Origin: an uncultured Patescibacteria group bacterium
GTDB taxonomy: Bacteria; Patescibacteriota; Microgenomatia; UBA10105; UBA927
DNA: 64,000 bases
NCBI GenBank assembly: GCA_937921305.1
Contig: CAKZSU010000002.1
Location: forward strand, 1,711 to 65,710
Direction: 5' to 3'
Numbering within the stretch: position 1 is the stretch's first letter; each line of letters starts with the position of its first letter. A program made the position numbers and the translations under genes. The notes beneath the pieces are model-generated. The model saw nothing but the letters and a program-made list of their open reading frames with translations, made no database searches and had not been told where the DNA came from. Below are positions 9,792-59,171 of this stretch, piece after piece.

Positions 9792-9800
9792 AATGTCTTT

Positions 9801-12602: not shown

Positions 12603-12607
12603 GCTAT

Positions 12608-13621: not shown

Positions 13622-13624
13622 AGA

Positions 13625-17015: not shown

Positions 17016-17061
17016 ACGGTCTCTATTCTATATAAAAATGTAGTATCATACTATCGCATCT

Positions 17062-18045: not shown

Positions 18046-18046
18046 C

Positions 18047-18751
18047 ATGATTTCCTCAATTTCACTCCTCATCCCAGCCTACAACGCGAAACAGACACTT
18101 CTTCCCGTTCTTACAAAGGCTCGAAGCATAATAGCATCCATCGCCAACGACAGAGAAATCATCGTCCTTGACGACGGATCAACAGACGAAACCTCTCGCA
18201 TTCTTGCCAATCTTTCATGGAAAGAACTCACTATCCTTCGCCATGAAATCAATCAAGGGTATGGAAAAACAATCAAAGATTTATATTACGCGGCGACGAA
18301 AAAATGGCTTGTTACGCTTCCATCCGATGATCAAATCGACCCGGAAGAAATCCGTAAACTGGCCTCTTGCCATGAACAAGGAGCCATGATCTTGGGAAAA
18401 CGATCAATCCGCCACGACCACCTCAAGAGACGAATACAATCGATGATGTACAATACATTATTGCGTCTTCTCTTTGATATTCCCACAACAGACGCAAACA
18501 CGATCAGACTCATGAAGCGAGAAATTCTTCAACATATAACACTTCGCGCAACGAGCGCGTTTGTTGACGCCGAGCTCATCATCGCGGCTCGAAACGCTGG
18601 ATATACCATTGTTGAAGTTCCGATTAACCATAAACCCAGAACAACGCCCGGCGCGACCGGCGGAAAATTCTTCGCAACCATTCTCCCAACGATTCAAGAC
18701 ATGATCGCGTATGCGATAACGCGTTCTTCTCGCCAATTCACACAATCATGA
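18047..18751 (+). CDS. GT2 family glycosyltransferase
   Basis: ISLLIPAYNAK...IVLDDGSTDET (DXD-type GT-A signature). The start was moved to the internal ATG just after the upstream stop. Confidence 0.7.
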   Translation: MISSISLLIPAYNAKQTLLPVLTKARSIIASIANDREIIVLDDGSTDETSRILANLSWKELTILRHEINQGYGKTIKDLYYAATKKWLVTLPSDDQIDPEEIRKLASCHEQGAMILGKRSIRHDHLKRRIQSMMYNTLLRLLFDIPTTDANTIRLMKREILQHITLRATSAFVDAELIIAARNAGYTIVEVPINHKPRTTPGATGGKFFATILPTIQDMIAYAITRSSRQFTQS

Positions 18752-18770
18752 TATATACTTACCCCTGCCT

Positions 18771-19808
18771 ATGATTCGCGTCCTCGTATTGGGAGCAGGC
18801 GGAGCTCCCTCAACAAATGTTGTCCGATCGCTCAAGAAAAAACGAAAGGCATACTACCTTGTTGGAACGGACGCAAATCCGTATTATCTTGCCCGAGCCG
18901 AGACAGACAAAACTTATCTTGTGCCAAAAGCAGACGATCCCGCGTTCCTCCCAAAACTTCGAGACATTATTCAAAAAGAGCAGATTGAGTATGTCCATAT
19001 TCAAAACGACAAAGAAGTCGCAGTTATCAGCGACCATAGAAATGAAATTCCCGCAACTCTCTTTCTGCCATCACAAGACACGGTTCGCGTCTGTCAAGAT
19101 AAATACGCATCGTATCTCCGGTGGAAACACGCGGGCATTCGTGTGCCGGAAACTATGATGATTAATACAGAAGACGATGTTAAACAAGCATTTTCCTTGT
19201 TTGATGGAATGATCTGGCTTCGATTCACAACTGGCGCGGCAGGAAACGGCTCGCTTAAACCAAAAAATGTTCAACAAGCAATCGCGTGGATCACTTTCCA
19301 CGATGGTTGGGGAAAATTTACCGCGGCGCGCGTGCTTGAGCCAGAAAGCGTCACATGGATGTCCATCTGGTATCAAGGAGAACTTATTGTCGCGCAAGGA
19401 CGAAAACGATTGTATTGGGAAGCGAGCCACCTCGCGCCTTCAGGCATCACTGGCATCACCGGCGCAGGCATCACGATTGACGACCCCGTAGTTGACGACA
19501 TCTCCATAAAAGCAATCAAAGCGATCGATCCCTCTCCACATGGACTCTACGGCGTTGATTTAACATACGATCACACCGGCATCCCAAATCCAACAGAAAT
19601 TAACATTGGACGATTTTTTACCACGCACTTATTTTTTACAGAACTTGGACTCAACATGCCGCATATCGCGGTATCGCTAGCCCTAGGGAAGAAACCAAAG
19701 CTCCCAAAAAAACGGATCAATCCGTTAGATCCTGGATGGGTGTGGATTCGCGGCGTAGACTTCGCCCCTATCCTTATTCGCGAAGAAAACATTGGAAATA
19801 ATCAGTAA
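18771..19808 (+). CDS. ATP-grasp domain protein
   Basis: Glycine-rich N-terminus (RVLVLGAGGAPS) and central/B-loop-like segments resemble PylC/carbamoyl-phosphate-synthase-like ATP-grasp ligases. Assignment from motif recollection only. Confidence 0.45.
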   Translation: MIRVLVLGAGGAPSTNVVRSLKKKRKAYYLVGTDANPYYLARAETDKTYLVPKADDPAFLPKLRDIIQKEQIEYVHIQNDKEVAVISDHRNEIPATLFLPSQDTVRVCQDKYASYLRWKHAGIRVPETMMINTEDDVKQAFSLFDGMIWLRFTTGAAGNGSLKPKNVQQAIAWITFHDGWGKFTAARVLEPESVTWMSIWYQGELIVAQGRKRLYWEASHLAPSGITGITGAGITIDDPVVDDISIKAIKAIDPSPHGLYGVDLTYDHTGIPNPTEINIGRFFTTHLFFTELGLNMPHIAVSLALGKKPKLPKKRINPLDPGWVWIRGVDFAPILIREENIGNNQ

Positions 19809-19850
19809 TCGGCTATTGGCAATCGGCAGTTGATTGTTAGGTGTAATCCT

Positions 19851-20483
19851 ATGACCATTTTTATCGATCTTGACGGAACCATTCTTCACACATTCGTTCG
19901 GCATATCGCAACGCATCACGCGGTTGCGCCTCGCGTTGGACTGCCGATCATTCCTAAAGAAGCATATTGGAGAAAAAAACGAGAGAAACAGACGCCATGG
20001 AACGAGATCTCTCAAGAACAACTCAAAGCATATACAAATCTTTTTCGCATTGAAACCGAACGATCAATCTATCTTTCTCTCGACACGCCGGTGTTTGGCA
20101 TAAAAATGCTTCTGAAAGATCTCACAAAACGCGTTGATCTTGTTCTTGTCACAAAACGATACAACAGAACAAACACGCTGTTTCAGCTCTATGATCTCAA
20201 TCTTCTCTCTTGCTTCACCGATGTGCTCACACCGTTTCCATCCTCGAAACGCGACGCAATTCAAACATATGGATATACACACCGAGATATCGTCATCGGC
20301 GACACAGAAGAAGACATTGAAACCGCAAACGAACTTACCCTTCGGTCTGTCGCCGTCTCATGGGGCATGAGGTCGCCGACCTATCTTGCGTCGCTTGGCC
20401 CAACACGACTCTGTCATACCGTAAAACAATTAAAAAATAATCTCTTTGTCTTGCTTAAGGAGAACTATCCATTGACCAAATGA
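19851..20483 (+). CDS. HAD-superfamily hydrolase
   Basis: Motif I FIDLDGTIL. Later VITKR and GDTEEDIETA motifs are consistent with HAD phosphatases. Confidence 0.6.
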   Translation: MTIFIDLDGTILHTFVRHIATHHAVAPRVGLPIIPKEAYWRKKREKQTPWNEISQEQLKAYTNLFRIETERSIYLSLDTPVFGIKMLLKDLTKRVDLVLVTKRYNRTNTLFQLYDLNLLSCFTDVLTPFPSSKRDAIQTYGYTHRDIVIGDTEEDIETANELTLRSVAVSWGMRSPTYLASLGPTRLCHTVKQLKNNLFVLLKENYPLTK

Positions 20484-20496
20484 TTCCCTTCCTTTA

Positions 20497-21137
20497 GTGT
20501 GTAATCGTATGAACCATACCTTCGCGTCAGTGATGGGAACCATGGGATCAGGGAAAACCACCATCGCGAATCTCATAGCGCAAGAGTGCGAATACACCCT
20601 TGTTCTCGAACAATTTGAAAACAACCCATTTCTTCCGAAATTTTACGCGGATATGAAACGATGGGCGTTTCATTCGCAAATGTTTTTTCTTCTTGAAAAG
20701 GCAAAACAACTTCATGGGATTCCTTCGTTGCTACAACAACAGTCTGTGATTCAAGACACGCCGATCATGCAAGATGTATATCATACGGGAAGGCGCAATA
20801 CGAACTTGGAAACATGGATCATCATGAGTGGAATCTGTATCTCAAAACATACGAAACGATCAGCGCGCATCTTCCAAAACCCGATGTGATCGTCTATCTC
20901 AAGACATCTATCGATACTCTTATGAAACGCATCAAACATCGAGGAAGATCATACGAACAATCAATTCCCAAAGACTATATTGCACTGCTAGATAGACTCA
21001 ACACCTTATGGATTGAATCAACCGACATTCCGATCATTGTTATCGATACCGATGAACGAGATATTGTAAACAAAGAACGCGACAGAGAGTATATAATCAT
21101 TACCCTTCGTCATGAACTTGCCCGTTATGCGCGATAG
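20497..21137 (+). pseudogene. deoxynucleoside kinase (dCK/dGK family) interrupted by a +/-1 frameshift
   Basis: P-loop GTMGSGKTT lies in frame 1 (20497..20889). The ERS-like region, lid region (RIKHRGRSYEQ) and C-terminus lie in frame 0 (to 21137). Homology to the dNK family continues across the frame change near 20700-20760. Confidence 0.5.
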
Positions 21138-21139
21138 CT

Positions 21140-22687
21140 ATGCATAAATTCTTGCTGTTTTTATTTCTCTCATTTGTTGGCACATCGTTGCTTGTCTATA
21201 TCTTCCAAACACGCCAATACCCTCAATGGGATGAACATCACTATCTTACGATCGCGGTAACAACACTTGACGACATCAAGGAACATGGCATCACCGGCAC
21301 ATTCTCGATTCTTGAAAACAGCGGTCATCGACAACCGATTTATCCACTCATCATCGCGACAATCCTACTCGTTACAGGAACAGATCATACCTATAAGATC
21401 GCGCTTGGCCTCAACGCGCTCCTCTTTTGTCTCACGATGATTGGAATTTATCGTATTGCTCGACGATGGCTTTCCAAAACAGCAAGCCTGTTCGCGGTAA
21501 TCACATTTGGAACCTATGGAAACGCACTCTTTTACGCGCATTTTACCTATGTCGAAACCGCGGTCACCGCGGCAATTGTCTGGGCGATCGTCGCGATTCA
21601 TAAAACACAGAAATTTGCAAACACCAAATGGAGTCTCGTCGCGGGGGCGATCGTTTCCGCCGCGACGCTCACGCGATTTATCGCGCCCGCGTTCCTTGCT
21701 GGACCAATCCTTGCGGAATTAATAACCTCGCGGAAACCGTCTCGCGTGTTTTTCAAAAACGCGGGACTCTTTCTTATCATCTCGATAGGATTGCCACTCA
21801 TACTCTACTTTATTCCCAACCGTGAACCATTTTTAGAGTATGTCCGCAACAATCAGACACTTGGACCAGAATGGGTTGCGCAGTATCGCGATCCAGCCAT
21901 GGCAAACATATTCTCCATACGATCGATTATGTATTACTTCAACATCCTACAACAAAACACGATCATTCCATTTCTTGCGTTTGTGTTTGGCATAATGATT
22001 CTGCTTTGGAATATTCCTCGAATCGTTTTAAGAGCATCGTCGAAATATCCTATTTCCATGATTGTGCATCTTCTCTTCTCATTTCTTTTTCCTTATGCGT
22101 TTCTTACTTTCATCACGATTTGGAAAGAGGATCGATTCATCGTTCCGCTCTACCCAACCATGGCGATTATTTCCGCTGTCTTTGTGGATTCGCTTCGCCG
22201 ATGGAGAATGATTCAAACACTTTGCATCACGCTTCTTGTCGGCGTGGGGTTCATGAATTTCTTTGGTGGGCTGTTTGGCATCGGACCAGCGGGACAACGC
22301 GGACTCGTGGATTACATCACGCCCCGATGGGTGCCTCACCCGCGACGAATCTATTTCACACCTCTTGTGTGGCCGCCAACAAAAGAATACACAAATGCGA
22401 GACTCGCCGCGACGATAATTCAAAATGATTGGCAAAATAAAGAACAGACAGACATTGGCATCACGTTTGACCATGAACCATTTATCAACGCGTTTTCTAG
22501 TCTTTTATGGTATGAACAACGAACGCTAGGAACGCTACATCTACAGGCAACAGAAGATATGGAATTTCTTGATTATCTATTCACACAACAGCCTGTTCGC
22601 CATGAAGAACGATGGAAACTCATCGCGACCATTCCGATACCATACGACAAGAGCGACGCCCTTCTCTATAGAAGAATTACTCAGTAA
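21140..22687 (+). CDS. GT-C fold glycosyltransferase, ArnT/PMT-like (GT39/GT83-like)
   Basis: TM1 is followed by PQWDEHHY, a DE motif in the first extracytoplasmic loop as in ArnT/PMT enzymes. Multiple further TM helices. 515 aa. Confidence 0.55.
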   Translation: MHKFLLFLFLSFVGTSLLVYIFQTRQYPQWDEHHYLTIAVTTLDDIKEHGITGTFSILENSGHRQPIYPLIIATILLVTGTDHTYKIALGLNALLFCLTMIGIYRIARRWLSKTASLFAVITFGTYGNALFYAHFTYVETAVTAAIVWAIVAIHKTQKFANTKWSLVAGAIVSAATLTRFIAPAFLAGPILAELITSRKPSRVFFKNAGLFLIISIGLPLILYFIPNREPFLEYVRNNQTLGPEWVAQYRDPAMANIFSIRSIMYYFNILQQNTIIPFLAFVFGIMILLWNIPRIVLRASSKYPISMIVHLLFSFLFPYAFLTFITIWKEDRFIVPLYPTMAIISAVFVDSLRRWRMIQTLCITLLVGVGFMNFFGGLFGIGPAGQRGLVDYITPRWVPHPRRIYFTPLVWPPTKEYTNARLAATIIQNDWQNKEQTDIGITFDHEPFINAFSSLLWYEQRTLGTLHLQATEDMEFLDYLFTQQPVRHEERWKLIATIPIPYDKSDALLYRRITQ

Positions 22688-31478: not shown

Positions 31479-31506
31479 TTGACAAATCATTAAGCATGTG
31501 TATAAT
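31479..31506 (+). promoter_or_regulatory. near-consensus sigma70-type promoter (TTGACA-N16-TATAAT)
   Basis: TTGACA at 31479-84 and TATAAT at 31501-06. An AAGGAGGA RBS lies ~7 nt before the ATG at 31565. Confidence 0.5.
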
Positions 31507-31564: not shown

Positions 31565-33781
31565 ATGGCAAATCCCAAAGAAGCTCCAAAAAGAAATCCT
31601 ATCACAACAGAAGATCAAAAAATAATCCCGAATAACTGGAAAAATAACTGGAAAAGCCTTGTTGCGTCAGCACTGTTTGCTATATCTTCTGCTGTAGTTC
31701 CTGACAGACAAGCATCCCCTTCTTCTGTTGACGACAGAGCATTAGAAATATTAAACGGACAACGACAACGAAGAATATCGCTTGTTGTGGATCAACGTGG
31801 TGATATATTTTCTCGAATTTCCCTCCCTGAATCTTCACGATCGGAGGAGCAGCAGAGAAACCTTGGAGCATTTGTGGAGCTTCCATCGATAGGAACTTTT
31901 ACAAAAGAAGAACAAAAACGCATACAAGCGCTGGTGTCAAATCGATTTTCTAATGCAACAACCGGAAGATATCTTATTCCTACTGCGGATGAGTCAGAAC
32001 TCTCCTCTCTTCTTTCGGATGAATCACCATTTGCTCAATATATTCATAAGATAATGCAGATAAGAAGATCAATAGAAGGAGAAGTGCAACTACTACTACT
32101 CATCCAGAAAGAAAATAGCCAGAAAGAAAATAGCGTTAAACAAGTAAGTATTATCTTCCAACCGATGGGTTCGCTTTCTCTTGGAGAGAGGATGGTAAAT
32201 CCGGAAAATCCAACATGGATTTTTCCAGGGAAAGATGGTGGATTACGAGTGATTGATGCGGGAAATTTACCTCAAGGAGCATCTCTTGATGCTATTACAG
32301 ACAGGCGTGATCTTCTAACTCTTCAAAGGAGCGCAAGAGCGCAAGGCTATGAAATTGATCTTTCGTCATATAACGGGGGATTTGTTCCTGTAATAAGAGA
32401 TGAGAAAGGACGGGTGATTCGCGTATTCGGCGAGAAAGGACCGGTCACATTTGAGCAACCATATATAAGACATACTGGAGGAGATCCAGTGAATATTCGA
32501 GATAATCCTTCCACATCTGGGAATCGTGTTGGATCATTCACATCAACAGGAGAGCCACTACGCGTGATAACTCCTGAAGAATTTCAAGAATACAGAGAAG
32601 CGATTCCTGATCAGACACGACTTTCGATAGAAAATAATAGAGTAACTTATAATGATGGTCGATATACATGGATTGCTGTATCATACGAAGGAAAAATACG
32701 ATGGGTTGCCCAGTTTCCTCAAATCCAACCATTTTCTCAACTCGAAGGAGTTTCGATAAGACAAGAAGCAATAAAAGAGTCATTCTCAAATAATCCAAAT
32801 ATCCTTGCTCGTCAACTTCGCCTCCCTGAAGGACAGTATAATTTTTATACAAATGAAGATTATGGACCGATAGAAATGTTACGAGATCAAAATGGAAAAA
32901 TTTGGGCAGTAAAAAAAGAAGGACAAGCAAACTGGCAAACAGCCGAAATGGTCGCAAGAGAATTAGGATTAGATACGCATGGAACCATAGAAATACCCGG
33001 ACTAGTAATTCAAAGACGAGAAGAAAAATTATACTATTATTTTTATAGTGATCTCTTGAATCTCTTTCTTAAAGAAGAAAGACCAAGCGGCAATAGACGA
33101 GGCATTGTTGCCATGTTTGACCATGAAACAGGAGATTGGTTAAATTTTCAATATGCTCAATATCGGATGATTGGTGTCCAAAACCTTGGAATCGTTAATA
33201 ATCCCCCATTGGGAATCGGATATAGTCGAGCTGCAGAACGATTTTTCTCTTTATATGGCGTAGGTGGAGGAGTAAGAAAAGTAGATCTTTGGATTTCCCC
33301 AGAATTGCATATTACAAAAATATTGAGGGTATATTGGTTAGAAAATCCCGGTCCAAGAACACCATGGACGCTTGAAAATCTTGCAATGAGAACCACAGTC
33401 ATTGTCCTTGACGGAACATTTAATGGTCAACAAATACAAGTATATGACAGTGAAATTTCTGAGGTTGAAAAATATTTACAAACAGTAGGTGTCCTTATCC
33501 GCAGTAGAATTAATATTGATCCAAGGTCGGAAAAAAATTTTCCAAAAACAACTCTATCCATATGGGATTTCATGGGGAGAGGAGAAAGATTGAATCTCCC
33601 ATGGGAAGAATATCAACGAAGACTAAACGATTTTTATCGTCAACATGGAGTGATGTTTGTCCAACTTGAAAGAATAGATACCAGAGAAAATCCTTATTAT
33701 CCAGGTCATTTTCGATTTCAAGTAGTGCCGTTCCCACCTGCGTTTCCTCCACATCCAATATATCCTGAAGATCCTAAATAA
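31565..33781 (+). CDS. large hypothetical exported protein (738 aa)
   Basis: One N-terminal hydrophobic segment (LVASALFAISSAVVP). No recognisable catalytic motifs. Proline-rich C-terminal tail. Confidence 0.4.
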   Translation: MANPKEAPKRNPITTEDQKIIPNNWKNNWKSLVASALFAISSAVVPDRQASPSSVDDRALEILNGQRQRRISLVVDQRGDIFSRISLPESSRSEEQQRNLGAFVELPSIGTFTKEEQKRIQALVSNRFSNATTGRYLIPTADESELSSLLSDESPFAQYIHKIMQIRRSIEGEVQLLLLIQKENSQKENSVKQVSIIFQPMGSLSLGERMVNPENPTWIFPGKDGGLRVIDAGNLPQGASLDAITDRRDLLTLQRSARAQGYEIDLSSYNGGFVPVIRDEKGRVIRVFGEKGPVTFEQPYIRHTGGDPVNIRDNPSTSGNRVGSFTSTGEPLRVITPEEFQEYREAIPDQTRLSIENNRVTYNDGRYTWIAVSYEGKIRWVAQFPQIQPFSQLEGVSIRQEAIKESFSNNPNILARQLRLPEGQYNFYTNEDYGPIEMLRDQNGKIWAVKKEGQANWQTAEMVARELGLDTHGTIEIPGLVIQRREEKLYYYFYSDLLNLFLKEERPSGNRRGIVAMFDHETGDWLNFQYAQYRMIGVQNLGIVNNPPLGIGYSRAAERFFSLYGVGGGVRKVDLWISPELHITKILRVYWLENPGPRTPWTLENLAMRTTVIVLDGTFNGQQIQVYDSEISEVEKYLQTVGVLIRSRINIDPRSEKNFPKTTLSIWDFMGRGERLNLPWEEYQRRLNDFYRQHGVMFVQLERIDTRENPYYPGHFRFQVVPFPPAFPPHPIYPEDPK

Positions 33782-34186: not shown

Positions 34187-34960
34187 ATGCATGTAAAAAC
34201 ATTTTTTGATTCCATCTGGAAACATAAAATATCTATTATTCTTTTTGCACTATTTTTTTCTCTGTTTGTTTCTATAGTAATCTACAGCATTAGGGCAAAT
34301 CCTAGTATAAAAAATACTATAAAAAAATATACTACTCCTAAAAAAACATATCGAGAACAAGAATTACTTCAAAAAATGAAAACGTTCGCGTTTCGAAACG
34401 GAGAACCTGCTCTTGCAAGAGGTATTACCGGTGGAGCAAAAGATTACGGTGGCAACACAATAAAAGGCGTACTTGCGGATATTACAACCAATCCAATACC
34501 TATCAAAACAAAAGATGGAAAAGAAATTGCAAAATCAATCATGACGTTTACTATTTTCTATATCAATGATTATAACGAGCTTGAAAAAATATATTTATCT
34601 GCAGCCATTCAATTTCCTGATGGATCATATTATCTGATAAGCGATAATCCAATTCGATTACCAAATGATACCGTAAATGATGAATATTATTACGATAAAA
34701 TTGGCACACCAGTATTCGCGCTCTTTCGAACAAATACAACATTAGGGCTAGAAACACTTAAACAACAAGGAAAATCTAAAGAAGAGCTTGATGCTGCAAA
34801 ACGAATTTTTTCATTTATTCAAACATATGAATCAAGCTGGAAGGAAGAACTAGACACGCTTGTTCTAGGAGGAAGAAAAGGAGCGTTGGAATTTCTCTTT
34901 CCTATCGCCTATAGCGATGATAGCTTTCGTCTTGAATATCAAGTATTTACTATTCCTTGA
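34187..34960 (+). CDS. hypothetical membrane-anchored protein (257 aa)
   Basis: N-terminal TM (ISIILFALFFSLFVSIVIYSI). Remainder hydrophilic. Confidence 0.35.
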   Translation: MHVKTFFDSIWKHKISIILFALFFSLFVSIVIYSIRANPSIKNTIKKYTTPKKTYREQELLQKMKTFAFRNGEPALARGITGGAKDYGGNTIKGVLADITTNPIPIKTKDGKEIAKSIMTFTIFYINDYNELEKIYLSAAIQFPDGSYYLISDNPIRLPNDTVNDEYYYDKIGTPVFALFRTNTTLGLETLKQQGKSKEELDAAKRIFSFIQTYESSWKEELDTLVLGGRKGALEFLFPIAYSDDSFRLEYQVFTIP

Positions 34961-36672
34961 CGAATATGAACTACAATGTTTATTCAAAATACTATCATTT
35001 TTTTATTGTCTGCATTTTTATCATTTTATTCTCTAGCAATGGCAAACATATTGTGATGGCTCAAGGGTATTCTACATCATGGTGTCCAAGTGGATGGTGC
35101 ACTGGGGAAAATAGTGGATTATGTTATAAAATGTGTGGAGTAGTTTTTGGAGTATGTCAGCCGACAGAAGGAGAATGGAGATCCTGGACATGTGGTGGAC
35201 ATCAATGTCTCTCTGGTCCTATTTTAGGATGCGGCAGCAATGTATCGTGCTCTAGTAGTGGAGTTACTATAGATAAGTGCGGTAACTGTCCTGGATCGCA
35301 ATATCGAGAATGCGGAACTTATGGAGCTGGATGTTATAATAATGTTAATCAATATGGATGCGGAACAGGATATAGAGGGGTAGCAAATCTAGGAGCATGT
35401 GGGAAAATTATAGAGGGTAGTTGCGCCGAACTTTCTTATCAGCCTATGGAGTGCTGTAGTCCAAACCCAAATCCAAATCCAAGTCCGAATCCAAGTCCAA
35501 GTCCGAATCCAACTTCTCCACCTCCGCCTGGAACATTTCAAGCAAGAGCGAGAAGAATTCCGTACGCAAGCATTGGAAACTGTAGCAATCCATCGGCAAC
35601 CCCCCTCTCTTCTTCCCTTCGCTTTGCCCCAGGAGTTCCTTCTCAAAACTCCGATGGAACATCCTATGCCTCGTGGTCTGTTACTCCTGGGACCTACACC
35701 ATCCTTCCAACGATTACGGAAGAAAATGGTTCTTCGTATGTATTACAAACCGTTTGTGTGTCGCGAGATGGAGGTTCGTTTTTTCCTTCTACGGTTGCTC
35801 AGACTGTAGGAAGCGGACAGACGATCGTGTTCGATCTTCTCTATACCTATGCAACATCGTGGATGCTGGTCGATGGAGGGGATGTAATTGCCTGTCAAGA
35901 TCTTTCTTCTGTTGTTCCTCCTTCTGCTGTTCCCGCGCCATATTTTATACTTGCGTCTGATGGAGGGTATCCTGGGGTAGCGTTGTATGGGACATGGTAT
36001 AGTTTTGATGAGTCACGATTGTATCGAACAGGGAGAGAATCTATTTCTCAGACCGGATGGATTGCGCAGTCTTCAAATCATCCATTGTGCAATACACAGA
36101 AGGTGAATTTTTACAAGGAGTTTGCGCACGCTGTTGATGTGAAAGCGATGACGCCGAAGAGAAATCTTCTTGGAGAACGAACAAAGGATGATTTTCCCGA
36201 CGCAGCGACCTATGTGATTGGAGATCTCACGCTTGGAGGATCTGACGACACGGCATGGGCGCTGTCTCAGAATGAGAAAAAAACGATTGTTGTGGATGGT
36301 AATGTAACCATTCGACGGAATATTACCTATCCTAACGGCGGGTTCTTTGGACTGATTGTGAATGGTGATATCACCATTAATTCCACTGTAGGATCGAATC
36401 CTTCAACAAGAACGCCAAGTCTTCGCGGATTCTATGCCACGAGTCCACAAGGAAGGTTAAACACGGGGAGAAGCACTATTACTGGAAAAGAGAAACTAGT
36501 CATTCTTGGGACCGTTGCGGTGGGGGGGGTAAATCTTCAGCGGAACTTGGATACGATTGGGATGAATCACACAACACCTGGAGAAGAATTCATCTATGAT
36601 ACTCACCTTATCATGAATCTCCCAGAGGCATTCCTTGAAACCAACATCGTTTGGCAAGAAGTCCCCCCGTGA
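34957..36672 (+). CDS. secreted cysteine-rich protein with PNPS-repeat linker and large C-terminal domain
   Basis: Signal/TM at the N-terminus. About 150 aa with more than 25 Cys. Low-complexity PNPNPNPSPNPSPSPNP linker. A ~380 aa C-terminal domain rich in G/T/S/N. TTG start in the track; the ATG at 34966 is more likely. Confidence 0.4.
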   Translation: MTNMNYNVYSKYYHFFIVCIFIILFSSNGKHIVMAQGYSTSWCPSGWCTGENSGLCYKMCGVVFGVCQPTEGEWRSWTCGGHQCLSGPILGCGSNVSCSSSGVTIDKCGNCPGSQYRECGTYGAGCYNNVNQYGCGTGYRGVANLGACGKIIEGSCAELSYQPMECCSPNPNPNPSPNPSPSPNPTSPPPPGTFQARARRIPYASIGNCSNPSATPLSSSLRFAPGVPSQNSDGTSYASWSVTPGTYTILPTITEENGSSYVLQTVCVSRDGGSFFPSTVAQTVGSGQTIVFDLLYTYATSWMLVDGGDVIACQDLSSVVPPSAVPAPYFILASDGGYPGVALYGTWYSFDESRLYRTGRESISQTGWIAQSSNHPLCNTQKVNFYKEFAHAVDVKAMTPKRNLLGERTKDDFPDAATYVIGDLTLGGSDDTAWALSQNEKKTIVVDGNVTIRRNITYPNGGFFGLIVNGDITINSTVGSNPSTRTPSLRGFYATSPQGRLNTGRSTITGKEKLVILGTVAVGGVNLQRNLDTIGMNHTTPGEEFIYDTHLIMNLPEAFLETNIVWQEVPP

Positions 36673-36736: not shown

Positions 36737-38299
36737 TCATTCTCCCTTGGACAACGATTCGAGGAAATCGTCATTTTTTTCTGTTTTACTCAAACGGTCA
36801 ATCAACATAACTGTTCGCTCGTCATCGGAAAGCATAGACAGCATATGGCGAAGCGTGGTGACCCGTTTCATTTTTTCTTCTCCGAGCAAAAGCTCGTCGT
36901 GCCGCGTGCCAGACTTAGCGATATCAATCGCCGGGAAAATTCGCCGTTCTTGCAACGAACGAGACAAATGAAGTTCCATGTTTCCCGTCCCCTTAAATTC
37001 TTCATAAATCAAATCATCCATTCTGCTCCCTGTGTCAACAAGCGCCGTGCCGATGACCGTCAACGATCCTCCAGGTTGCGGTTGACCATCAGGGCCAGTG
37101 ATCTCCACGCAACGCGCCGCACCCAAAAACCGTTTCGCTGGATACAACGCAGCAGGGTCAAATCCGCCAGACAATGTTCGCCCTGATGGATTCACGACAA
37201 GATTATACGCTCGCGCAAGGCGCGTGATCGAATCAAGAAGCACCACAACGTGCTTCCCCATCTCTACCAATCGCTTTGCGCGATCCAACGCAATCTCCGC
37301 AATTCGTGTTTGTTCTTGCGGTGATTGATCAAAATTACTTGCTAATACTTCTCCCTTTACACTTCGCGAGATATCAGTTACTTCTTCTGGTCGCTCTCCA
37401 ATAAGTGTTGCCATAAGATGAACATCAGGAAAGTTTTGAGCTATGCCAGCAGCAATTTCTTTCATGATCGTCGTCTTTCCTGCTTTTGGCGGAGAGACGA
37501 TTAACCCTCGCTGTCCAAATCCTATTGGCGCGATTAAATCAATGATGCGCGTGGATAACGGAAGTCGCCCTGTTTCCAACCGCAACAGTCTATTCGGATA
37601 AATCGGCGTGAGATCTTCAAATTTTGGACGATTCGCCAATTCCTCGACAGGAATATCATTCACTTTTTCAACCTTCAAAAGTCCCCAATATCGTTCATTT
37701 TCTTTCGGCCGTCTCGCCTGTCCTTCAACCATATCACCATTTCGAAGGAGGAATCGACGAATTTGCGATTGAGAAATGTAAATATCGCGATCGCTTGGCG
37801 TAAATTTTGGTCGAAGAAATCCATGTCCTTCTGGCATCATATCCAAAATTCCTCGAACAGTTTCTGTTGGCACATTGATATCTTGAATTTGTCCATTTTC
37901 TGTCTGTACGACATCGCGACGCATAAGCGTACGACGAGGTTGATACCGAGGACGATATCCTATCTGCGAAGAAGCAGATCCATGCCCGTTACCATTCCAT
38001 CGTTGATGAGATTGCTGAACCGCTGGAGGTTGCAAAGGGCTTTCAAAAGAAAGATTTGAAGAATCAGCCGATAACGAAGAGCTAGGCAATCCCGAGGCAT
38101 TGGACATTTCAGTAGCATCAGACGGCGTTCCCACAAGATCATCCACAGATGGTTCAGGCGACGAGGAAGAAACAGAAAGTGTTTCATCAATTCTTTGAGA
38201 AGAAACATCGGTTGATTCAGTAGATGATAAAGACGGAACATTCACATCTTCATCAGTGGCTTTCGATTTAGATAGTTTTCTTGAAGCGCGAAATGCCAT
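36737..38299 (-). CDS. rho: transcription termination factor Rho with serine-rich N-terminal insertion
   Basis: Walker A GLIVSPPKAGKTT. The Q-loop/R-loop region and the C-terminal ...FPAIDIAKSGTRHDELLL are near-identical to canonical Rho. The first ~110 aa are a low-complexity S/T/Q/N-rich insertion. Confidence 0.9.
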   Translation of the reverse strand: MAFRASRKLSKSKATDEDVNVPSLSSTESTDVSSQRIDETLSVSSSSPEPSVDDLVGTPSDATEMSNASGLPSSSLSADSSNLSFESPLQPPAVQQSHQRWNGNGHGSASSQIGYRPRYQPRRTLMRRDVVQTENGQIQDINVPTETVRGILDMMPEGHGFLRPKFTPSDRDIYISQSQIRRFLLRNGDMVEGQARRPKENERYWGLLKVEKVNDIPVEELANRPKFEDLTPIYPNRLLRLETGRLPLSTRIIDLIAPIGFGQRGLIVSPPKAGKTTIMKEIAAGIAQNFPDVHLMATLIGERPEEVTDISRSVKGEVLASNFDQSPQEQTRIAEIALDRAKRLVEMGKHVVVLLDSITRLARAYNLVVNPSGRTLSGGFDPAALYPAKRFLGAARCVEITGPDGQPQPGGSLTVIGTALVDTGSRMDDLIYEEFKGTGNMELHLSRSLQERRIFPAIDIAKSGTRHDELLLGEEKMKRVTTLRHMLSMLSDDERTVMLIDRLSKTEKNDDFLESLSKGE

Positions 38300-38500: not shown

Positions 38501-40840
38501 TTAGAGCGTTTGATAAATAACGGTGTTTCCAGATCTGAATACCTCACGAGATTCGCTCATTATATCATCCTCTCTCAAGTTCTGAAACTTCTGTCGTTCA
38601 AGCGTTCCGATTACAATATATCGAACAGCGTATTTTTGGAGAATGCGACGACGCTGATAAGCATCACCTTCATATACCAATCGCACCTCGTCTCTTCTCG
38701 GAGCGACAACATCATATGATCCTCGCCACAACCACTCATGCACCGCCCATCCAATAATTGTAGGAGCGCCTGCAAACGCGCTCATTGTGTTGTAATCGGT
38801 ATAACTTTCTCCATCCGCTTCCACAATCACAGGAATGCTATTGAGATGACGGGTAAAAAACGTATCGCGAACATGAACATCCTGTTTCGCTAATCCTCTT
38901 AAAAATGTGTCTGATGTCCGATATCCGACGCCAGACATCTGCCCTCTTAACCAACGCATGGCAGCGTAATCGTCTGGATAGTCTCTCGCAAACCATTGCA
39001 GTCCATCCAACCCCCTATAAACCTGCAATCCGCCAAAATATGACCGTACGGAAAAAAATGGATATATAGACACTAAAAATAACTGTGGCATAAGAAGGAT
39101 GAAAAAGGTTCGCTTCCCCCACAAACGAAGCATAGATGTTTTTTGTTGTTTTGATCGCTCTAACATCTGAACAATGATATACGCGGAAAGCAACGAACAT
39201 ATAATAAACGCCTGATATCCCAACTTAAACATCGTATTGCTTCGGAAATCCGCTGGATAAATATCTTTGAAATAAAAAAATTCCGCAAAGAAAATAAGGC
39301 CAACGGAATAAAGAAATAAAACGATCAACAATCGATTCACTGAATCAACATGAAGATGAATTTGTCCCTTTTCTCGACTGATCCGAATTGTCTTGATTAT
39401 CAACGCAATCCCGCAAAAGAAGAAAAATCCCCACAGAAGCCATATCATCCAAAGCGGCGACCTTTGACACTGCTCAACGGTTTCGAACAACAATGGACCG
39501 ATTTTTGTATTTTCGAAAACTTTTGGCGGGCAGTTCACCGCAAGTCCTGTCGCAAACGACTTGAAATTCAAAAGAAAAGGAAGAGATATAGCGATAAAAC
39601 CAAATGCAACAGACAGAATCTTCGATCCGATATCTTGGATCCACTCCCACGACCACGGTTCGCGCGCGCTCCACCGATACACAAGAATAAGAATACCCAT
39701 AATGCCAAGATAAATCGGACCATCAAGCGCGTTAGTCATAAACAACACACCAACCAGTCCTCCATATAACACAAATGCAACAAGCAATGTTTTATCCTTC
39801 ATCACAAACATAGTGAGAATCGAAGCAATGGCAAGAAGCGCGAATGGAATGCCAAGCACATGCCCATGATTATCTGAAACAACAAATGAATAGCTGGGAA
39901 ACTCGTGAATTGTGAATGGAATAAAGCGCGTCGCGTTAGCGTACCAATAACTATTCATTGATTCCGGAAGTTTCGCGAAGAGTTCGCTTGGCGAGTGCAG
40001 AATCGTCCAAAATGGCGGCGGTGTGTCTTCGTGATGATACCCTTTTGTAAACGCATAAATCGTCTGCATGTTTCCCGATAGCGACACCAAAAACGCGCCA
40101 AGAAGACCTGCAAGGATAAGAAATAATCTTCGAGGTTTTCGTTGCGACAATTGATACCCGAGAACTGTTAATTGAACGCTGATGGAAAACGACATGGTGA
40201 AACACAATGCGAACAATGTCGCAAGCATTAAGTTGTATCCATACGCAAGGTTAATTCCGGAAAGCTTGGAAAGCATTACCATGACAGCGTGTCCGAAATA
40301 GTAGTAATTAATCGTTCCTCCCGCGTACCACATGTCTGGCGGCGGGAAGTAGGGAGCATTCAAAATCGACTGGGCAAACCCGTAATCCATAAACTTTTCC
40401 AAACTTCGAATATCCGGCTCATGCGCTTTGATGAAACTCCAGAAGAACAAACAACAAAAAAAGAAGATCTCAAGAAGCATGAAGCGATTGAGATGAATGT
40501 TTCTTATTCGAGATTGTTTTTTATTATCACTTTGAGATTGTCTCCAAAGATGAAAACCGCGAATGCCACCCTGATGCAAAAAGACACCAATAATCAGCAA
40601 CAATATAACACTTCCAATAATCGTTATTTGGGTAAACGGAAGAATCTTAAAACTCCCAAGATACCAAGAGATAAGCATCGTTCCCGCGATCCCAATAACC
40701 TTCGAAAGCGAATATCCCTCGTCCCACCATGAAGAAAAGAACAATCGAGCAAGAGGAAACGCAGCGGCGCCAATAAAAAATATTACTACCCACCAGAGAA
40801 GGATAAAAAAGAAATCAACAGAGAAGACATCAAAGTTCAT
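38501..40840 (-). CDS. large polytopic membrane protein, GT-C-like (DUF2298-like by recollection)
   Basis: 779 aa. TM1 is followed by SSWWDEGYS (DE motif). More than 12 TM helices. C-terminal soluble domain with HEWLWRGSYD. Confidence 0.45.
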   Translation of the reverse strand: MNFDVFSVDFFFILLWWVVIFFIGAAAFPLARLFFSSWWDEGYSLSKVIGIAGTMLISWYLGSFKILPFTQITIIGSVILLLIIGVFLHQGGIRGFHLWRQSQSDNKKQSRIRNIHLNRFMLLEIFFFCCLFFWSFIKAHEPDIRSLEKFMDYGFAQSILNAPYFPPPDMWYAGGTINYYYFGHAVMVMLSKLSGINLAYGYNLMLATLFALCFTMSFSISVQLTVLGYQLSQRKPRRLFLILAGLLGAFLVSLSGNMQTIYAFTKGYHHEDTPPPFWTILHSPSELFAKLPESMNSYWYANATRFIPFTIHEFPSYSFVVSDNHGHVLGIPFALLAIASILTMFVMKDKTLLVAFVLYGGLVGVLFMTNALDGPIYLGIMGILILVYRWSAREPWSWEWIQDIGSKILSVAFGFIAISLPFLLNFKSFATGLAVNCPPKVFENTKIGPLLFETVEQCQRSPLWMIWLLWGFFFFCGIALIIKTIRISREKGQIHLHVDSVNRLLIVLFLYSVGLIFFAEFFYFKDIYPADFRSNTMFKLGYQAFIICSLLSAYIIVQMLERSKQQKTSMLRLWGKRTFFILLMPQLFLVSIYPFFSVRSYFGGLQVYRGLDGLQWFARDYPDDYAAMRWLRGQMSGVGYRTSDTFLRGLAKQDVHVRDTFFTRHLNSIPVIVEADGESYTDYNTMSAFAGAPTIIGWAVHEWLWRGSYDVVAPRRDEVRLVYEGDAYQRRRILQKYAVRYIVIGTLERQKFQNLREDDIMSESREVFRSGNTVIYQTL

Positions 40841-40880: not shown

Positions 40881-42521
40881 ATGAAGCGCAATAAAAAAAA
40901 AATTCATTTTCACCACCTCATCTATCTCGGTTTTTTTCTCTTCTCGTTTTACCTCATGACACATACCTTTGGCTACGATTCAAAGAAACATCATATCGTT
41001 ATCGCATCTCGATTATGGAGTGATTTTGGCGCGCACATCCCGCTCATTCGCTCGTTTTCTTTTGGAGACAATTGGCCACCGGAGTACCCATTATTTCCAG
41101 GAGAAAAGATTCGCTATCACTTTCTGTTTTATTTCATCGCGGGGATGCTGGAACGGATAGGAGTTCGGATCGATTGGGCTATAAATATTCCAAGCATTCT
41201 TGGTTTTTTCCTTCTTCTTATTATGATCTATAAACTTGGAACCCTTCTCTTTGAGAGAAAAATTGTCGGCGCGATAGCTGTTGTCTTTTTCCTCTTTAAT
41301 GGATCGCTCTCGTTTCTAAAATTTTTTGAAAAACATCCGCTCGGGCCATCAACGATTCGCGATATTCTCACGCTTAATCAATTTCCAACGTTTGGACCAT
41401 GGAGCGGAGATCTCGTCACCGCGTTTACACACTTGAATGTATACACAAATCAACGTCACCTTGCGCCATCATTCGCAATTTCCCTCTTCATCATATACGC
41501 GCTTATGAAGCGAGAAAAACAGCATCACGGTAAAAAAATAGCATCAATCATTCCACTCTCACTTGGCATCGGCATGTTGGTTGGCAGCCTCTTTTTTCTG
41601 AATCACCCTGTGCTTCTTATTACTGTCATTTTCTGTTGCTATCTTTTTCTTTTTCATGCAACAACGCGAGCTCCTCTGTTGATTGCCGGCATAACAAGTC
41701 TTCCTTTTCTTTTCCTGTTTTTTAAGATATTTCAACCATCAGGAATGCCTGTTTGGGATATTGGCTACCTATCAAAAAAACCATTTGCATGGACTACATT
41801 CTTTGAATTTTGGCTCCATAATTTTGGATTTCATCTTTTTCTTATTCCTATTGGATTCCTTCTCGCGCCAAAACGGATCCGCTTTCTTTTTCTCCCCATG
41901 CTCATCCTCTTCACGATTCCAAACATGTATCGCTTTTCACCTGATATGATCAATAATCATAAATTTTTTAATTTCTTTACCATCATCGGCGGCATGTACA
42001 GCGCGCATGTTCTCTTCAGACTATTTCAAATTCGCTTTGTTTTTTTTAAGATTCTGGCGATTGCGCTTCTTTTCTTCTCTACATTCTCAGGGATATTGGA
42101 CTTTATAGTAATTCACAATGATTACTATATTTTCATGCAAGACATCCCAAAAAATAAAGATGCCGCGTTTATCGCCGACTTTACCGAAAGAGACGCCGTG
42201 ATTCTTAACAGCACATGGTTCCATCCAGCGTCAATCGCGGGAAGAAAAATTTATAATGGGTACTTATTCTTCACTTGGTCAGCAGGATACCCAGCATTTG
42301 AACGAGAAGCAGTTGTGAAAATGATTTACCAATCAGAGGATCGCAAAACTATATGCTCACTCCTTCAACGAGAAGGAATATCATATGTGGAGCTCAATCG
42401 AAACCCTGAAAAATTTTTAGAGCCTATTGGTATGATCTGGGAAACATTTAAACCATGGTACGATAATAAAAAAACCGGGATGAGACTCTATAGAACACAA
42501 GATCTTTGTGAGCACCTATGA
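40881..42521 (+). CDS. polytopic membrane protein, putative GT-C glycosyltransferase
   Basis: 546 aa with many TM helices. Arranged divergently from, and adjacent to, other GT-C genes. Confidence 0.4.
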   Translation: MKRNKKKIHFHHLIYLGFFLFSFYLMTHTFGYDSKKHHIVIASRLWSDFGAHIPLIRSFSFGDNWPPEYPLFPGEKIRYHFLFYFIAGMLERIGVRIDWAINIPSILGFFLLLIMIYKLGTLLFERKIVGAIAVVFFLFNGSLSFLKFFEKHPLGPSTIRDILTLNQFPTFGPWSGDLVTAFTHLNVYTNQRHLAPSFAISLFIIYALMKREKQHHGKKIASIIPLSLGIGMLVGSLFFLNHPVLLITVIFCCYLFLFHATTRAPLLIAGITSLPFLFLFFKIFQPSGMPVWDIGYLSKKPFAWTTFFEFWLHNFGFHLFLIPIGFLLAPKRIRFLFLPMLILFTIPNMYRFSPDMINNHKFFNFFTIIGGMYSAHVLFRLFQIRFVFFKILAIALLFFSTFSGILDFIVIHNDYYIFMQDIPKNKDAAFIADFTERDAVILNSTWFHPASIAGRKIYNGYLFFTWSAGYPAFEREAVVKMIYQSEDRKTICSLLQREGISYVELNRNPEKFLEPIGMIWETFKPWYDNKKTGMRLYRTQDLCEHL

Positions 42522-44299
42522 AAATAAACCAATTCTTAATTCCTTTATGGTGTATCGTAATTGCGTTTGGCGCGATCACGCGATGGCATGGTAACGACTG
42601 GGACCAAGGGAATCACCTGCATCCAGACGAACGTTTTTTAACCATGGTCGCAAACGCTATGGAGTGGCCAATAACGATTCAAGAATACTTGAATACAGGC
42701 GAATCAAAACTCAATCCACATAACATTGGCTTTCCTTTTTATGTGTATGGCACATGGCCGGTTATCTTCGTCAAATACGTTGCGGAGTCATTAGGAAAAG
42801 GAGATTATTATCATCTTACGCTCATTGGACGATTATTGTCGGGATTGACTGATCTTTTCATCTGCATCTTCATCTTTTTAATCGGAAAAAGATTATCATT
42901 TCTTTTATATAGTTATGTAAATCATTCTCGTCATATCATTGTAGGACTCGTCGCTATGACCCTCTATATTCTTATGGCGCTTCCGATCCAACTTTCTCAC
43001 TTCTTCACAACCGATCCATATGTTACGGTGTTTCTTGTTGTATGCGTCTATCTTCTTCTCTTTTCACCTTCATGGAAAACCGGAGCGCTTCTCGGCGTTT
43101 TTGCAAGTCTCGCGGTATCAGCAAAAATCTCTGGTGTTTTAATCCTTCCAATCATTGGCGTTAGCCCCCTTCTCTATTTGGTATATAAAAAAAAACTATA
43201 TGATAAAAAGAATGCTTTCAAATATATAAAGAAAAAGAGTATTCAATTGTTCATTTTTTATATTTTATTTTCAATCTTTTTTATTTTGTCATTTCGAATT
43301 CTTATGCCCTACCTTTTTGATTCTTCTCAGATATTTTCTTTCAATCAAAAAACACTTGATAACTGGCGGACATTGAACAGTTTTGACGATCCGAATGGAT
43401 GGTTTCCCCCGGCGGTGCAATGGATCAATCAACCGAAACTCATTGCGCCGCTTTTCATGATCTTTTTCATCGGTCTTGGCCCGCCGCTTGGCATCCTTAT
43501 CACTGTTTCTCTTATATGGATGGTTACACAACTAAAACATGCCATCATTCTCCTTTTGCCTTTCTCATTTATTGGCATAATCTTTTTCTATCACGCGATG
43601 GGATTCGCCTTCCCTCTGCGATATTTTTGGCCTATGTATCCCATGCTCGCAATCATTTGCGGTCTTTGGATTGAGTCAATGTATCATCGATACGCTCATC
43701 GGCGGATCGTGTTAATTGGTTTAACAATTATTATCTTGCTCCTCCTTGTCTGGCCAACCGCAGTTCTTTTGCTATATGCTCGTCCTCATAGTAGAGTAAC
43801 AGCGTCTCAATGGATCTATGAAAACATCCCTGAAGGAAGTGCGATCAGTTATGAATATTGGGATGATCCTCTCCCGCTCCATCTTCCAGAATCTCCCGGA
43901 AGCAAAATCTATAAAGGTGTTGAGCTTCCCATGTATTTTCCCGATACAGAAGAAAAATGGATCGAGATAGAGACAAAACTTGAAGAAATCGATTACGTTA
44001 TCTTGTCCAGCAATCGCGTCTACGGATCGATTCTTTCAGCGCCGGAACGATACCCAAAAACGGCAAAGTTTTATCGTGACCTCTTTTCAGAACGACTTCC
44101 GTTTGAAAAAATTGCAGAATTCACTTCGAGACCTTCGCTTCCGCTCCCTATTAATCTTTGCATTCCAATACCATGGTTTTCGTATGGGAAAATAAACCAA
44201 TCGCATGTCTGTCAAGGCATCGAATTTATCGATGATTATGTCGAAGAATCATGGACCGTGTACGATCATCCAAAAGTGACAATATTTAAGAGAAAATAG
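42518..44299 (+). CDS. polytopic membrane protein, GT-C-like with HPDERF motif after TM1
   Basis: 593 aa. NDWDQGNHLHPDERF acidic motif in the first loop. 4-nt overlap with the upstream gene. Confidence 0.45.
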   Translation: MKINQFLIPLWCIVIAFGAITRWHGNDWDQGNHLHPDERFLTMVANAMEWPITIQEYLNTGESKLNPHNIGFPFYVYGTWPVIFVKYVAESLGKGDYYHLTLIGRLLSGLTDLFICIFIFLIGKRLSFLLYSYVNHSRHIIVGLVAMTLYILMALPIQLSHFFTTDPYVTVFLVVCVYLLLFSPSWKTGALLGVFASLAVSAKISGVLILPIIGVSPLLYLVYKKKLYDKKNAFKYIKKKSIQLFIFYILFSIFFILSFRILMPYLFDSSQIFSFNQKTLDNWRTLNSFDDPNGWFPPAVQWINQPKLIAPLFMIFFIGLGPPLGILITVSLIWMVTQLKHAIILLLPFSFIGIIFFYHAMGFAFPLRYFWPMYPMLAIICGLWIESMYHRYAHRRIVLIGLTIIILLLLVWPTAVLLLYARPHSRVTASQWIYENIPEGSAISYEYWDDPLPLHLPESPGSKIYKGVELPMYFPDTEEKWIEIETKLEEIDYVILSSNRVYGSILSAPERYPKTAKFYRDLFSERLPFEKIAEFTSRPSLPLPINLCIPIPWFSYGKINQSHVCQGIEFIDDYVEESWTVYDHPKVTIFKRK

Positions 44300-55540: not shown

Positions 55541-55659
55541 CCTCGGCGATGACCTATCTTCCAATAGCTCGCGAGAGCTACGTATTGTTGGCGCTGAACC
55601 GTTTTACTTCTGAGTTCGGAATGGGATCAGGTAGTTCCAGTTCGCTCAAATCACCGAGA
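55541..55659 (-). rRNA. rrf: 5S ribosomal RNA
   Basis: Reverse complement contains the conserved GATCCCATTCCGAACTCAGAAG loop C/helix III region. Ends pair (TCTCGGTG.../...CGCCGAGG). A hairpin plus T-tract follows on the minus strand. Confidence 0.75.
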
Positions 55660-55771
55660 CAATTCTGTTTTTTTGAACCGCATTGAATATGAGTCAATTG
55701 CCTAAAAAGGGGCAATGTGCATCCGCATTTTTCTGCATACGGTAATCGCCGTCACGGAAAAGGACCCTTTA

Positions 55772-58980
<3,209 letters not shown>

Positions 58981-59171
58981 AGAACAAAAGGCTTTTGTTC
59001 CGGCGACTCTTTTTTATGGCATAAAAAAAGAGGTGAATGTCATTACCCCTTTTCATGCAACTACTCATTCAATGTTTCAATGTTTTTCCCTATTCACTTG
59101 TTAAAGTGCAACACTGTACTCACGAAGCAATACCTACGATGACATTGCTTCATCATCGTCTGTATCGCATC

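Follow-up and report, generated by a model that had tools for sequence, protein, structure and literature searches.

We have analysed a 64,000-nt stretch of contig CAKZSU010000002.1 (the window), which carries at positions 34957..36672 of the forward strand a gene for a modular protein of the secreted type, 571 amino acids (aa) long and hereafter called the target. The open reading frame (ORF) had been singled out in an earlier note made from the DNA sequence; it is real, and all peptide strings quoted there are present. The target belongs to a large protein family with a constant C-terminal domain and variable N-terminal modules, and it is the only ORF in the window matched by the hidden Markov model (HMM) of the conserved domain, so that no paralog was seen there.

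The gene is the last of three, in the order large partner, small partner, target; the features of this unit given below are all on the forward strand. The large partner (738 aa, 31565..33781) contains neither Cys nor any known domain, Pfam giving a sub-threshold SH3_3 match only, and its N-terminus is a weakly hydrophobic leader or anchor. The small partner (257 aa, 34187..34960), described in the note as membrane-anchored, does carry one strong N-terminal hydrophobic helix (Kyte-Doolittle 2.7), read as a transmembrane (TM) helix, and has no Cys. Its stop codon overlaps the TTG start of the target by 4 nt (TTGA; …CCTTGACG…), and the two genes are translationally coupled; an alternative in-frame ATG is codon 4 of the target ORF, three codons past the TTG. 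About 60 nt upstream of the 738-aa gene lies a sigma-70-like sequence, TTGACA-16 nt-TATAAT (31479..31506), identified by its 12/12 consensus match only, which is likely the promoter of the three-gene unit.

Four parts follow one another in the target: a Sec-type signal peptide, a Cys-rich module, a (PNPS)n spacer and a C-terminal region of 377 aa. The signal peptide, as read from sequence, takes up aa 1-36 (34957..35064) and has the n/h/c order, with K11, the h-region HFFIVCIFIILF and a predicted cleavage site IVMA↓QG (the arrow marks cleavage); a helix was modelled by AlphaFold2 at aa 9-26 within it. An xVxA↓Q cleavage pattern with the same n/h/c layout was found in the 24 family members inspected. 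With an N-terminus that resembles a signal peptide and matches the sites of its family, the protein looks secreted, as had been thought, and it is presumably exported via Sec. Public gene calls of the family are often too short at the 5′ end, and both Cys modules and signal peptides are thus lost from many database entries. The target ortholog in the retrieved locus L004 was called at 352 aa (P0004, L004 10001-11059), the actual ORF having 626 aa, and the gene in L011 (10870-12534) was called at 554 aa versus an actual 587 aa.

The Cys-rich module (aa 37-168, 35065..35460) contains 18 Cys and 25 Gly. The earlier count of more than 25 Cys in this module was too high, since even the whole protein has 23, of which one is in the signal peptide and four are in the C-terminal region. 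Cys makes up 13.6% of the module (18 of 132 residues); in 31 ORFs nearby it makes up 0.73%, and a binomial test puts P for this enrichment at about 1e-17. The spacing is 4-7-3-6-11-4-7-5-9-2-7-6-8-12-7-9-0. No known family was matched: for the module alone, neither Pfam nor NCBIfam produced a match even at E ≤ 1. The resemblance to chitin-binding, lectin or disulfide-knotted modules that had been suggested thus has no counterpart in these databases, and no profile of a curated Cys-rich module (hevein, knottin, thrombospondin type-1) was matched, the spacings having been compared by profile only and not pattern by pattern.

A homolog of the module does exist at the N-terminus of the full-length L004 ortholog (38-45% identity). 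Conservation of Cys positions in homologs had been named beforehand as a test, and 17 of the 18 Cys align directly in this ortholog, the 18th after a shift of four residues; this comparison rests on the one ortholog that carries the same module type. Further copies of this type were found neither among the retrieved family proteins nor in JGI metagenome contigs, and across the family the N-terminal modules (N-modules) are not homologous to one another. The Cys of the target would be engaged in disulfide bonds; AlphaFold2 modelled the module poorly, with a predicted local distance difference test score (pLDDT) of ~35. The L004 ortholog has an extra Cys module (aa ~183-228; L004 9700-9850), CTCGAWVDGACRxGGCGNGQRLQTRSC, also present in P0162, which by eye resembles a thrombospondin type-1 repeat and has no Pfam match at E ≤ 1. 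Another motif, CSGSPATKTRT...C, recurs directly before the C-terminal domain in many family members.

The Pro-rich (PNPS)n spacer (aa 169-192, 35461..35532) includes the tract PNPNPNPSPNPSPSPNPTSPPPP (aa 168-192), which is present as previously quoted. At the DNA level it is a CCAAAT/CCAAGT hexanucleotide repeat (35460-35512). On the near-identical contigs L011 and L012 the gene differs only by a longer spacer, with 16 and 20 additional PNPS-type residues, respectively, and by three substitutions; protein lengths across near-identical strains are therefore 571, 587 and 591 aa. The tract thus behaves as a spacer, in agreement with its earlier description as a linker. Four short-read contigs (L001-L003 and L013) end exactly inside the repeat; the differences reflect either real length polymorphism or assembly collapse, and the window copy may be a collapsed one.

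The C-terminal region, rich in Thr, Ser, Gly and Asn as the note had said (and close to the ~380 aa given there), is what defines the family. In an exhaustive HMMER profile search of 1.84 billion representative proteins clustered at 50% identity, 3330 clusters passed E ≤ 1e-3; a threshold of 1e-10 left 2227 of them and one of 1e-30 left 458. Next to hundreds of relatives, the search recovered P0002, a C-terminal fragment of the target itself, at E 8e-130. Most members come from metagenomes of tiny bacteria that are probably symbionts. Word-indexed searches gave far less: one match with the full protein, three with a 90-sequence alignment (low-complexity words dominate) and six with an alignment of the C-terminal domain. 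Narrow degenerate patterns found one locus in the GTDB representative genomes. Nearly all full-length matches carry the ~370-residue domain right up to their final residue, with 80-730 aa of variable, unrelated sequence ahead of it. These N-regions begin with a signal peptide or membrane anchor, contain 4-15% Cys and often end in a Pro/Thr linker. The target has the same architecture, its domain (BLASTP E 6e-59 to P0001 over aa 195-571) standing at the extreme C-terminus behind a signal peptide, a variable Cys-rich module and a Pro-rich linker.

No family member was found under a name other than 'hypothetical protein', and neither NCBIfam, PHROGs nor a PDB sequence profile search (E ≤ 10 for the latter) produced a relevant match to the target or the family. 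The closest described entry is Pfam DUF7305 (PF23981), to which we found no reference in the literature searched and which has no assigned function. In the target it aligns below threshold (14.5 bits versus a gathering cut-off of 27, E 0.033), with the predicted beta-helix rungs at aa 417-510 falling on model positions 49-142. Among 67 family members scanned with Pfam, 29 have DUF7305 at E ≤ 0.01 (best 4.3e-10), and the Pfam model spans ~95 of the 377 conserved residues. The family thus appears to be related to DUF7305 but poorly covered by its model. The same scan identified known modules in the variable parts: Hint/pretoxin-HINT (six members), Big_2, fn3, Laminin_G_3 (LamG), VWA, TSP_1, SdrD_B and a sialidase lectin domain. 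One member also has an NCBIfam match to the fimbrial protein TafC (E 2.7e-14), and the target has no such match. We set it aside as most likely due to that member's variable laminin-G module and not to the conserved domain, since TafC has a laminin-G-like domain and one member has a strong Laminin_G_3 match; that both matches concern the same member and region is our assumption.

With the 90-sequence alignment, AlphaFold2 modelled the C-terminal region at pLDDT >90 over aa ~190-560. The earlier note had proposed a beta-helix or a beta-sandwich; both are predicted, one after the other. First comes an immunoglobulin (Ig)-like, prealbumin-like beta-sandwich (aa 192-298, 35530..35850), which contains the Cys209-Cys267 pair. 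It is followed by a beta-helix domain (aa 299-571, 35851..36669), in which two-strand rungs at regular spacing are predicted over aa ~300-560 and which includes the DUF7305 alignment and a second, subclade-specific Cys pair (C313, C378). Modelled alone, aa 299-571 gave pLDDT 93.5 and a predicted template modelling score (pTM) of 0.90.

Among solved structures, Foldseek places the sandwich closest to Ig-like domains from pilins and adhesins of Gram-positive bacteria and to carboxypeptidase-regulatory-like domains (E 2e-3 to 0.4); a homolog has a weak CarboxypepD_reg Pfam match. At the head of these are the CnaB/prealbumin-like domains of Spy0128 (3b2m), a Mobiluncus adhesin (5u5o) and UafA (3irp), with E 2e-3 to 2e-2. 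Unlike them, the target has no LPXTG or sortase context, and its first strand carries Arg (in an ARA motif) instead of the isopeptide Lys; a conserved disulfide would stabilise the domain in its place. Nor does the target resemble a sortase-anchored adhesin elsewhere, as it ends in ...NIVWQEVPP with neither LPXTG nor a C-terminal hydrophobic stretch, and its sole MSCRAMM match is low-complexity and lies on the linker (E 0.15).

For the beta-helix, no structure in the PDB was matched by Foldseek at better than E=0.07, the weak shape matches being to ice-binding-type helices, the ComZ solenoid, tapirin and tailspikes. The best of them, ice-binding beta-helices (DUF3494; FfIBP 4nu2, 5uyt) and the ComZ beta-solenoid (6qvi), share with aa 299-571 a compact beta-helix with a short flanking helix; at E 0.07-0.4, TM-scores of 0.17-0.32, ~10% identity and no Pfam match the likeness is one of shape only. 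As regards ice-binding proteins, there is no DUF3494 match in Pfam at E ≤ 1, and the best Foldseek hit has E 0.07, probability 0.3 and TM-score 0.24.

The likeness to ComZ bears on the idea that the target sits at the tip of type IV pili or is another accessory protein of theirs, analogous to ComZ or PilY1, in which a conserved domain docks to the pilus and a variable part adheres. PilY1 combines a constant C-terminal domain with variable N-terminal adhesive modules, and by analogy the arrangement of the target family resembles it. The match to the ComZ solenoid is weak (E 0.03-0.1, probability 0.2). Against the idea, the signal sequence is of the Sec type with an AxA-like site (IVMA↓QG) and not of the prepilin type, as a type IV pilin would have it, no pilus genes occur in any annotated neighbourhood and no solved pilin was matched in sequence. 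We regard this function as very improbable indeed.

A beta-helix behind a Pro/Ser linker could also belong to a secreted glycan-active enzyme, with the helix as catalytic part (lyase, hydrolase or esterase) and the Cys-rich module as carbohydrate-binding part, the succession of signal peptide, binding-module-like region, linker and beta-helix being the layout of secreted carbohydrate-active enzymes. The position of the locus among glycan-biosynthesis genes would suit such an enzyme, and Foldseek has pectin methylesterase and phage tailspikes among its matches, though very weakly (E 0.8-8). The conservation of the domain speaks otherwise. All family-invariant residues are present in the target: the Cys209/Cys267 pair (100% conserved in the 90 sequences), G491, G518, R529, P556, W566, E568 and the terminal Pro. 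Conserved positions are mainly Gly, aromatic residues and Cys, plus R529, N537, S364 and E568. They include no invariant acidic or basic cluster, and the best-conserved Asp (position 349, 93% of members) is Ser in the target; Q304L (Gln in 90% of members), E490R and P549T are further departures from the family consensus besides this D349S. This pattern, with departures at conserved Asp and Gln, points to a structural or binding role rather than a catalytic one. In addition, the helix is short, its nearest shapes are non-enzymatic ice-binding or adhesin helices, and neither Pfam nor NCBIfam has a match to any beta-helix enzyme family. The domain therefore does not fall in the pectate lyase superfamily, with no profile match, no invariant acidic cluster and fold matches at E ≥ 0.8. 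As a catalytic function would also leave the co-varying and fused membrane partner (see below) unexplained, we consider it unlikely.

Almost invariant across the family is the extreme C-terminal tail, W-x-E-V-x-P-COOH (WQEVPP in the target; aa 565-571, 36649..36669), in which W is found in 98%, E in 100%, V in 93% and the last P in 100% of the 90 aligned sequences. Model confidence is lower here (pLDDT 48-69). We know of no sorting signal that matches this tail; it may serve as a docking or recognition motif.

We compared the genes around the target with those at about 30 informative loci, a set that includes 33 metagenome loci retrieved with the family alignment. The gene order of the window, as judged by size and topology, recurs in L004-L008 and across this set. 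In about 18 loci the ORF adjoining the target on its upstream side (gap -31 to +8 nt) is Cys-poor, N-terminally anchored and 177-295 aa long, and most of the remaining loci have directly upstream of the target a large ORF with no Pfam domain. Pfam gave no match for the ten large partners scanned. Partner sequences are fast-evolving. Those of the window are homologous to the L004 partners only: the 257-aa protein to L004_249 (39% identity) and the 738-aa protein to L004_699 (30% identity over ~600 aa), with nothing beyond the L004 group found for either by BLAST or hhalign. Eleven other small partners cluster into one family.

In several lineages the small partner and the target are joined. Six representative family proteins (P0162, P0017, P0044, P0067, P0014 and P0063) have a small-partner-like region fused in frame to the target, and among the retrieved loci L029 (860-3637), L031 (3915-6713) and possibly L027 contain further fusions. 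The fused proteins begin with a strong TM helix and a Cys-free region of 200-265 aa, followed by the Cys-rich modules. By hhalign (probability 94.7%, E 6e-8, 173 columns) the fused regions are homologs of small partners that are encoded separately, so that, as far as sequence can tell, the fusions are a 'Rosetta stone' link between small partner and target. The upstream 257-aa gene appears by the same token to be a functional partner of the target and not a mere neighbour. Eight of nine fusion junctions keep the motif IPxxYA↓Q, which looks like a signal-peptide c-region whose hydrophobic core has decayed; the motif could be a retained cleavage site.

Pairs of related loci reveal what is exchanged. 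Between L004 (6171-11058) and L016 (3770-7780), the final 1.36 kb of the target gene, which covers the thrombospondin-like module, the linker and the whole C-terminal domain, has a nucleotide identity of 97.6%. The two are also alike at the 5′ end, where the first 220-270 nt are 91-97% identical, including 75 nt upstream of the large partner gene and its first ~50-65 codons. The middle 2.4-3.3 kb are unrelated and the outer flanks differ. L029 and L036 have 98.6% amino-acid identity from residue 348 and 127 onward, respectively. Their N-parts and partners are unrelated: in one, the partner region is fused and followed by a first Cys module; in the other, the partner is a separate protein, and neither it nor the first Cys module is related to its counterpart. 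In the third pair, L033 and L048, the C-parts are 82% identical in amino acids, and N-modules and partners are again unrelated. Large partners in several pairs have only their first 50-95 residues in common. Thus, in three locus pairs, the first N-module goes with the small partner and with the body of the large partner, both in inheritance and in replacement, and the C-terminal domain remains constant (82-99% identity). The window and L004, where homologous partners accompany a homologous N-module, fit such co-inheritance.

Joint replacement of a variable module and an adjacent small gene is a hallmark of toxin-immunity cassettes, and Hint/pretoxin-HINT domains were found in six of the 67 members scanned. 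The earlier note had mentioned a polymorphic-toxin carrier. In its usual form this does not apply, the variable part being N-terminal and the constant part C-terminal, with no toxin domain and no conserved downstream immunity gene; the genes downstream of target loci are unrelated housekeeping genes (Rho, dTDP-sugar isomerase, MurL, rnpA), an arrangement unlike that of CDI/Rhs/PT-HINT systems. A mirrored form can be imagined, in which the N-module would be an extracellular antimicrobial or toxin, the upstream membrane protein its immunity protein and the C-terminal domain a carrier or targeting part. Several lineages, however, have the supposed 'immunity' and 'toxin' parts fused in one polypeptide. 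Co-variation extends to the large partner as well, the domain searches revealed no toxin, and the N-regions of some members are ordinary adhesive domains. We therefore hold even the mirrored form to be very unlikely.

Our tentative proposal is that the three proteins act together at the cell surface as an attachment complex whose specificity cassette can be exchanged, and that the target is a Sec-exported, disulfide-stabilised modular envelope protein of this complex; we give this a probability of about 0.45. The small membrane protein would hold its cognate N-module at the membrane or aid its folding, in the manner of a lipase-specific foldase or a pro-region, and the (PNPS)n tract would be a spacer of variable length. 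The Ig-like and beta-helix unit would be a binding head projecting outward on this spacer, an orientation suggested by the fused forms, in which the membrane anchor adjoins the N-module. The 738-aa and 257-aa proteins would interact physically with the target. Recombination between the conserved 5′ and 3′ ends of the locus would swap as a unit all that lies between them (large-partner body, small partner and first N-module), giving rise to strain-specific variants.

Several points weigh against this proposal. No characterised homolog of the target was found by sequence, and attachment is a function that we infer. The N-module, at pLDDT ~35, leaves the model with nothing to say about its ligand, and by analogy the conserved C-terminal domain could be a wall-proximal anchor. 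The partner link at the window locus comes from position, size, topology and co-inheritance with L004; the window 257-aa protein and L004_249 have no recognisable homology to the main partner family, the one that occurs fused to the target (hhalign probability 1.5%). Nor does L007 fit a simple one-cassette picture: it contains (1722-4192) a second upstream pair of the partner type, 572 aa plus an N-terminally anchored 266 aa, with no target of its own. The large protein of this pair is common with the next one only over the first ~95 aa, and the pair may be an orphan or spare cassette.

The main rival reverses the polarity of the complex, so that the C-terminal domain with its WxEVxP tail would anchor the protein to the cell wall or S-layer and the variable Cys-rich N-module would be the exposed tip. 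In S-layer proteins of Lactobacillus and C. difficile and in sortase-anchored MSCRAMM adhesins a conserved anchoring part carries a variable exposed part, and the constant-versus-variable pattern of the target family, together with recombinational exchange, resembles by analogy S-layer and surface-antigen cassettes. The strictly conserved tail could then be a docking motif, and the known adhesive modules lie in the N-regions of some members. Yet the fused variants place the membrane anchor N-terminally, directly ahead of the Cys-rich modules; the membrane-anchored partner co-varies with the N-module and not with the C-terminal domain; and the target has no SLH, LysM, CWB or LPXTG element. This orientation seems to us rather doubtful, and the outward projection of the C-terminal unit is the one we prefer.

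The proposed attachment complex might be one case of a more general arrangement: a widespread, undescribed cassette-switching surface-recognition system in bacteria of the candidate phyla radiation (CPR) type, made up of homology arms, a three-protein specificity module and a foldase or anchor partner. The conserved 5′ segment (promoter and large-partner leader) and the 3′ Ig-like and beta-helix segment would act as the homology arms, between which recombination would exchange the large-partner body, the membrane-anchored small partner and the Cys-rich N-module. The swapped module would set specificity for a host or partner cell or permit escape from phages. In the small partner the system would have its own foldase or anchor, tethered to the membrane and occurring in separate and in fused, pro-region-like forms. 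Taken as a whole this extension is speculative and somewhat unlikely to hold in full.

Parts of this scheme have counterparts in known systems. Lipase-specific foldase (Lif)/lipase pairs and pro-region chaperones are similar by analogy, not by sequence, in that an N-terminally anchored bitopic partner is encoded beside the secreted protein for which it is specific, and Lif-type function is likewise known both as a separate protein and as a fused pro-region; the differences are that here the partner gene lies upstream and that a third, large protein co-varies. The C. difficile S-layer cassette, the Campylobacter fetus sap locus and CDI/Rhs modules may be likened to the locus in having conserved flanks around a swapped centre that includes adjacent cognate genes. 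They involve different proteins, CDI/Rhs has the opposite polarity, and no machinery for inversion or silent copies was seen here.

The window probably comes from a small-genome bacterium of the CPR/Patescibacteria. The gene for 23S rRNA (55541-58981, reverse strand) is oversized, its match spanning 3209 nt versus 2925 nt in the model, with an insertion of ~280 nt; a 5S rRNA gene is adjacent, and the whole window, with the ~5 kb that precede the 23S gene on its 5′ side, has no match to 16S rRNA. CPR bacteria typically have such rRNA operons, which contain insertions and lack a linked 16S. The gene content around the target is dominated by envelope-glycan genes. In Peribacteria, a CPR class of the phylum Peregrinibacteria, strain-variable Cys-rich extracellular proteins with a proposed role in attachment have been described (PMC4736985). 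As far as the description goes, they are like the target in being secreted, very Cys-rich and strain-variable; they differ in being much larger (mean 1655 aa) and in being defined by neither a shared C-terminal domain nor a partner-gene cassette. These proteins, the oversized 23S rRNA gene with no linked 16S and the envelope-glycan gene content together suggest a CPR/Patescibacteria-like origin, against which stand two homologs labelled 'Chloroflexi' and 'Gammaproteobacteria' in public records, labels that are unverified. An origin from a phage or plasmid was considered and rejected: the target has no PHROG match and the partners have matches at E ≥ 0.007 only, no relative was found on a viral contig and no plasmid was matched by tblastn.

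How ultra-small, host-dependent bacteria recognise other cells and attach to them is largely unknown, and most of their surface proteins are unannotated. The target provides a concrete handle on this question: its family has thousands of clusters and a confidently modelled domain, its partners look obligate, and there is direct sequence evidence that close relatives exchange N-terminal module and partners as one unit. Should the complex serve in attachment, its variable cassette would be a candidate determinant of host range, and the constant domain could be used as a marker and antigen for localisation. If the adhesion reading is wrong, there is still a large family with a cleanly delimited domain, partly covered by Pfam DUF7305.

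Other genes of the window deserve mention. Next to the target lies a gene for the transcription termination factor Rho (36737-38299, reverse strand) with a Ser/Pro/Asp-rich N-terminal extension of ~130 aa. In L007 the equivalent locus has Rho and a LysM-M23 peptidase on its flanks as well, so that the genomic position is conserved between distant relatives. Large multi-pass membrane proteins are encoded at 21140-22687, 38501-40840, 40881-42521 and 42518-44299; they comprise a PMT_2-like protein, a DUF2298 protein and two unannotated ones. Together with them, in a set of regions that also takes in 8800-20500, is a nucleotide-sugar/glycosyltransferase cluster. Speculatively, the multi-pass proteins and this cluster might supply enzymes that glycosylate envelope polymers or the target's Ser/Pro-rich spacer.

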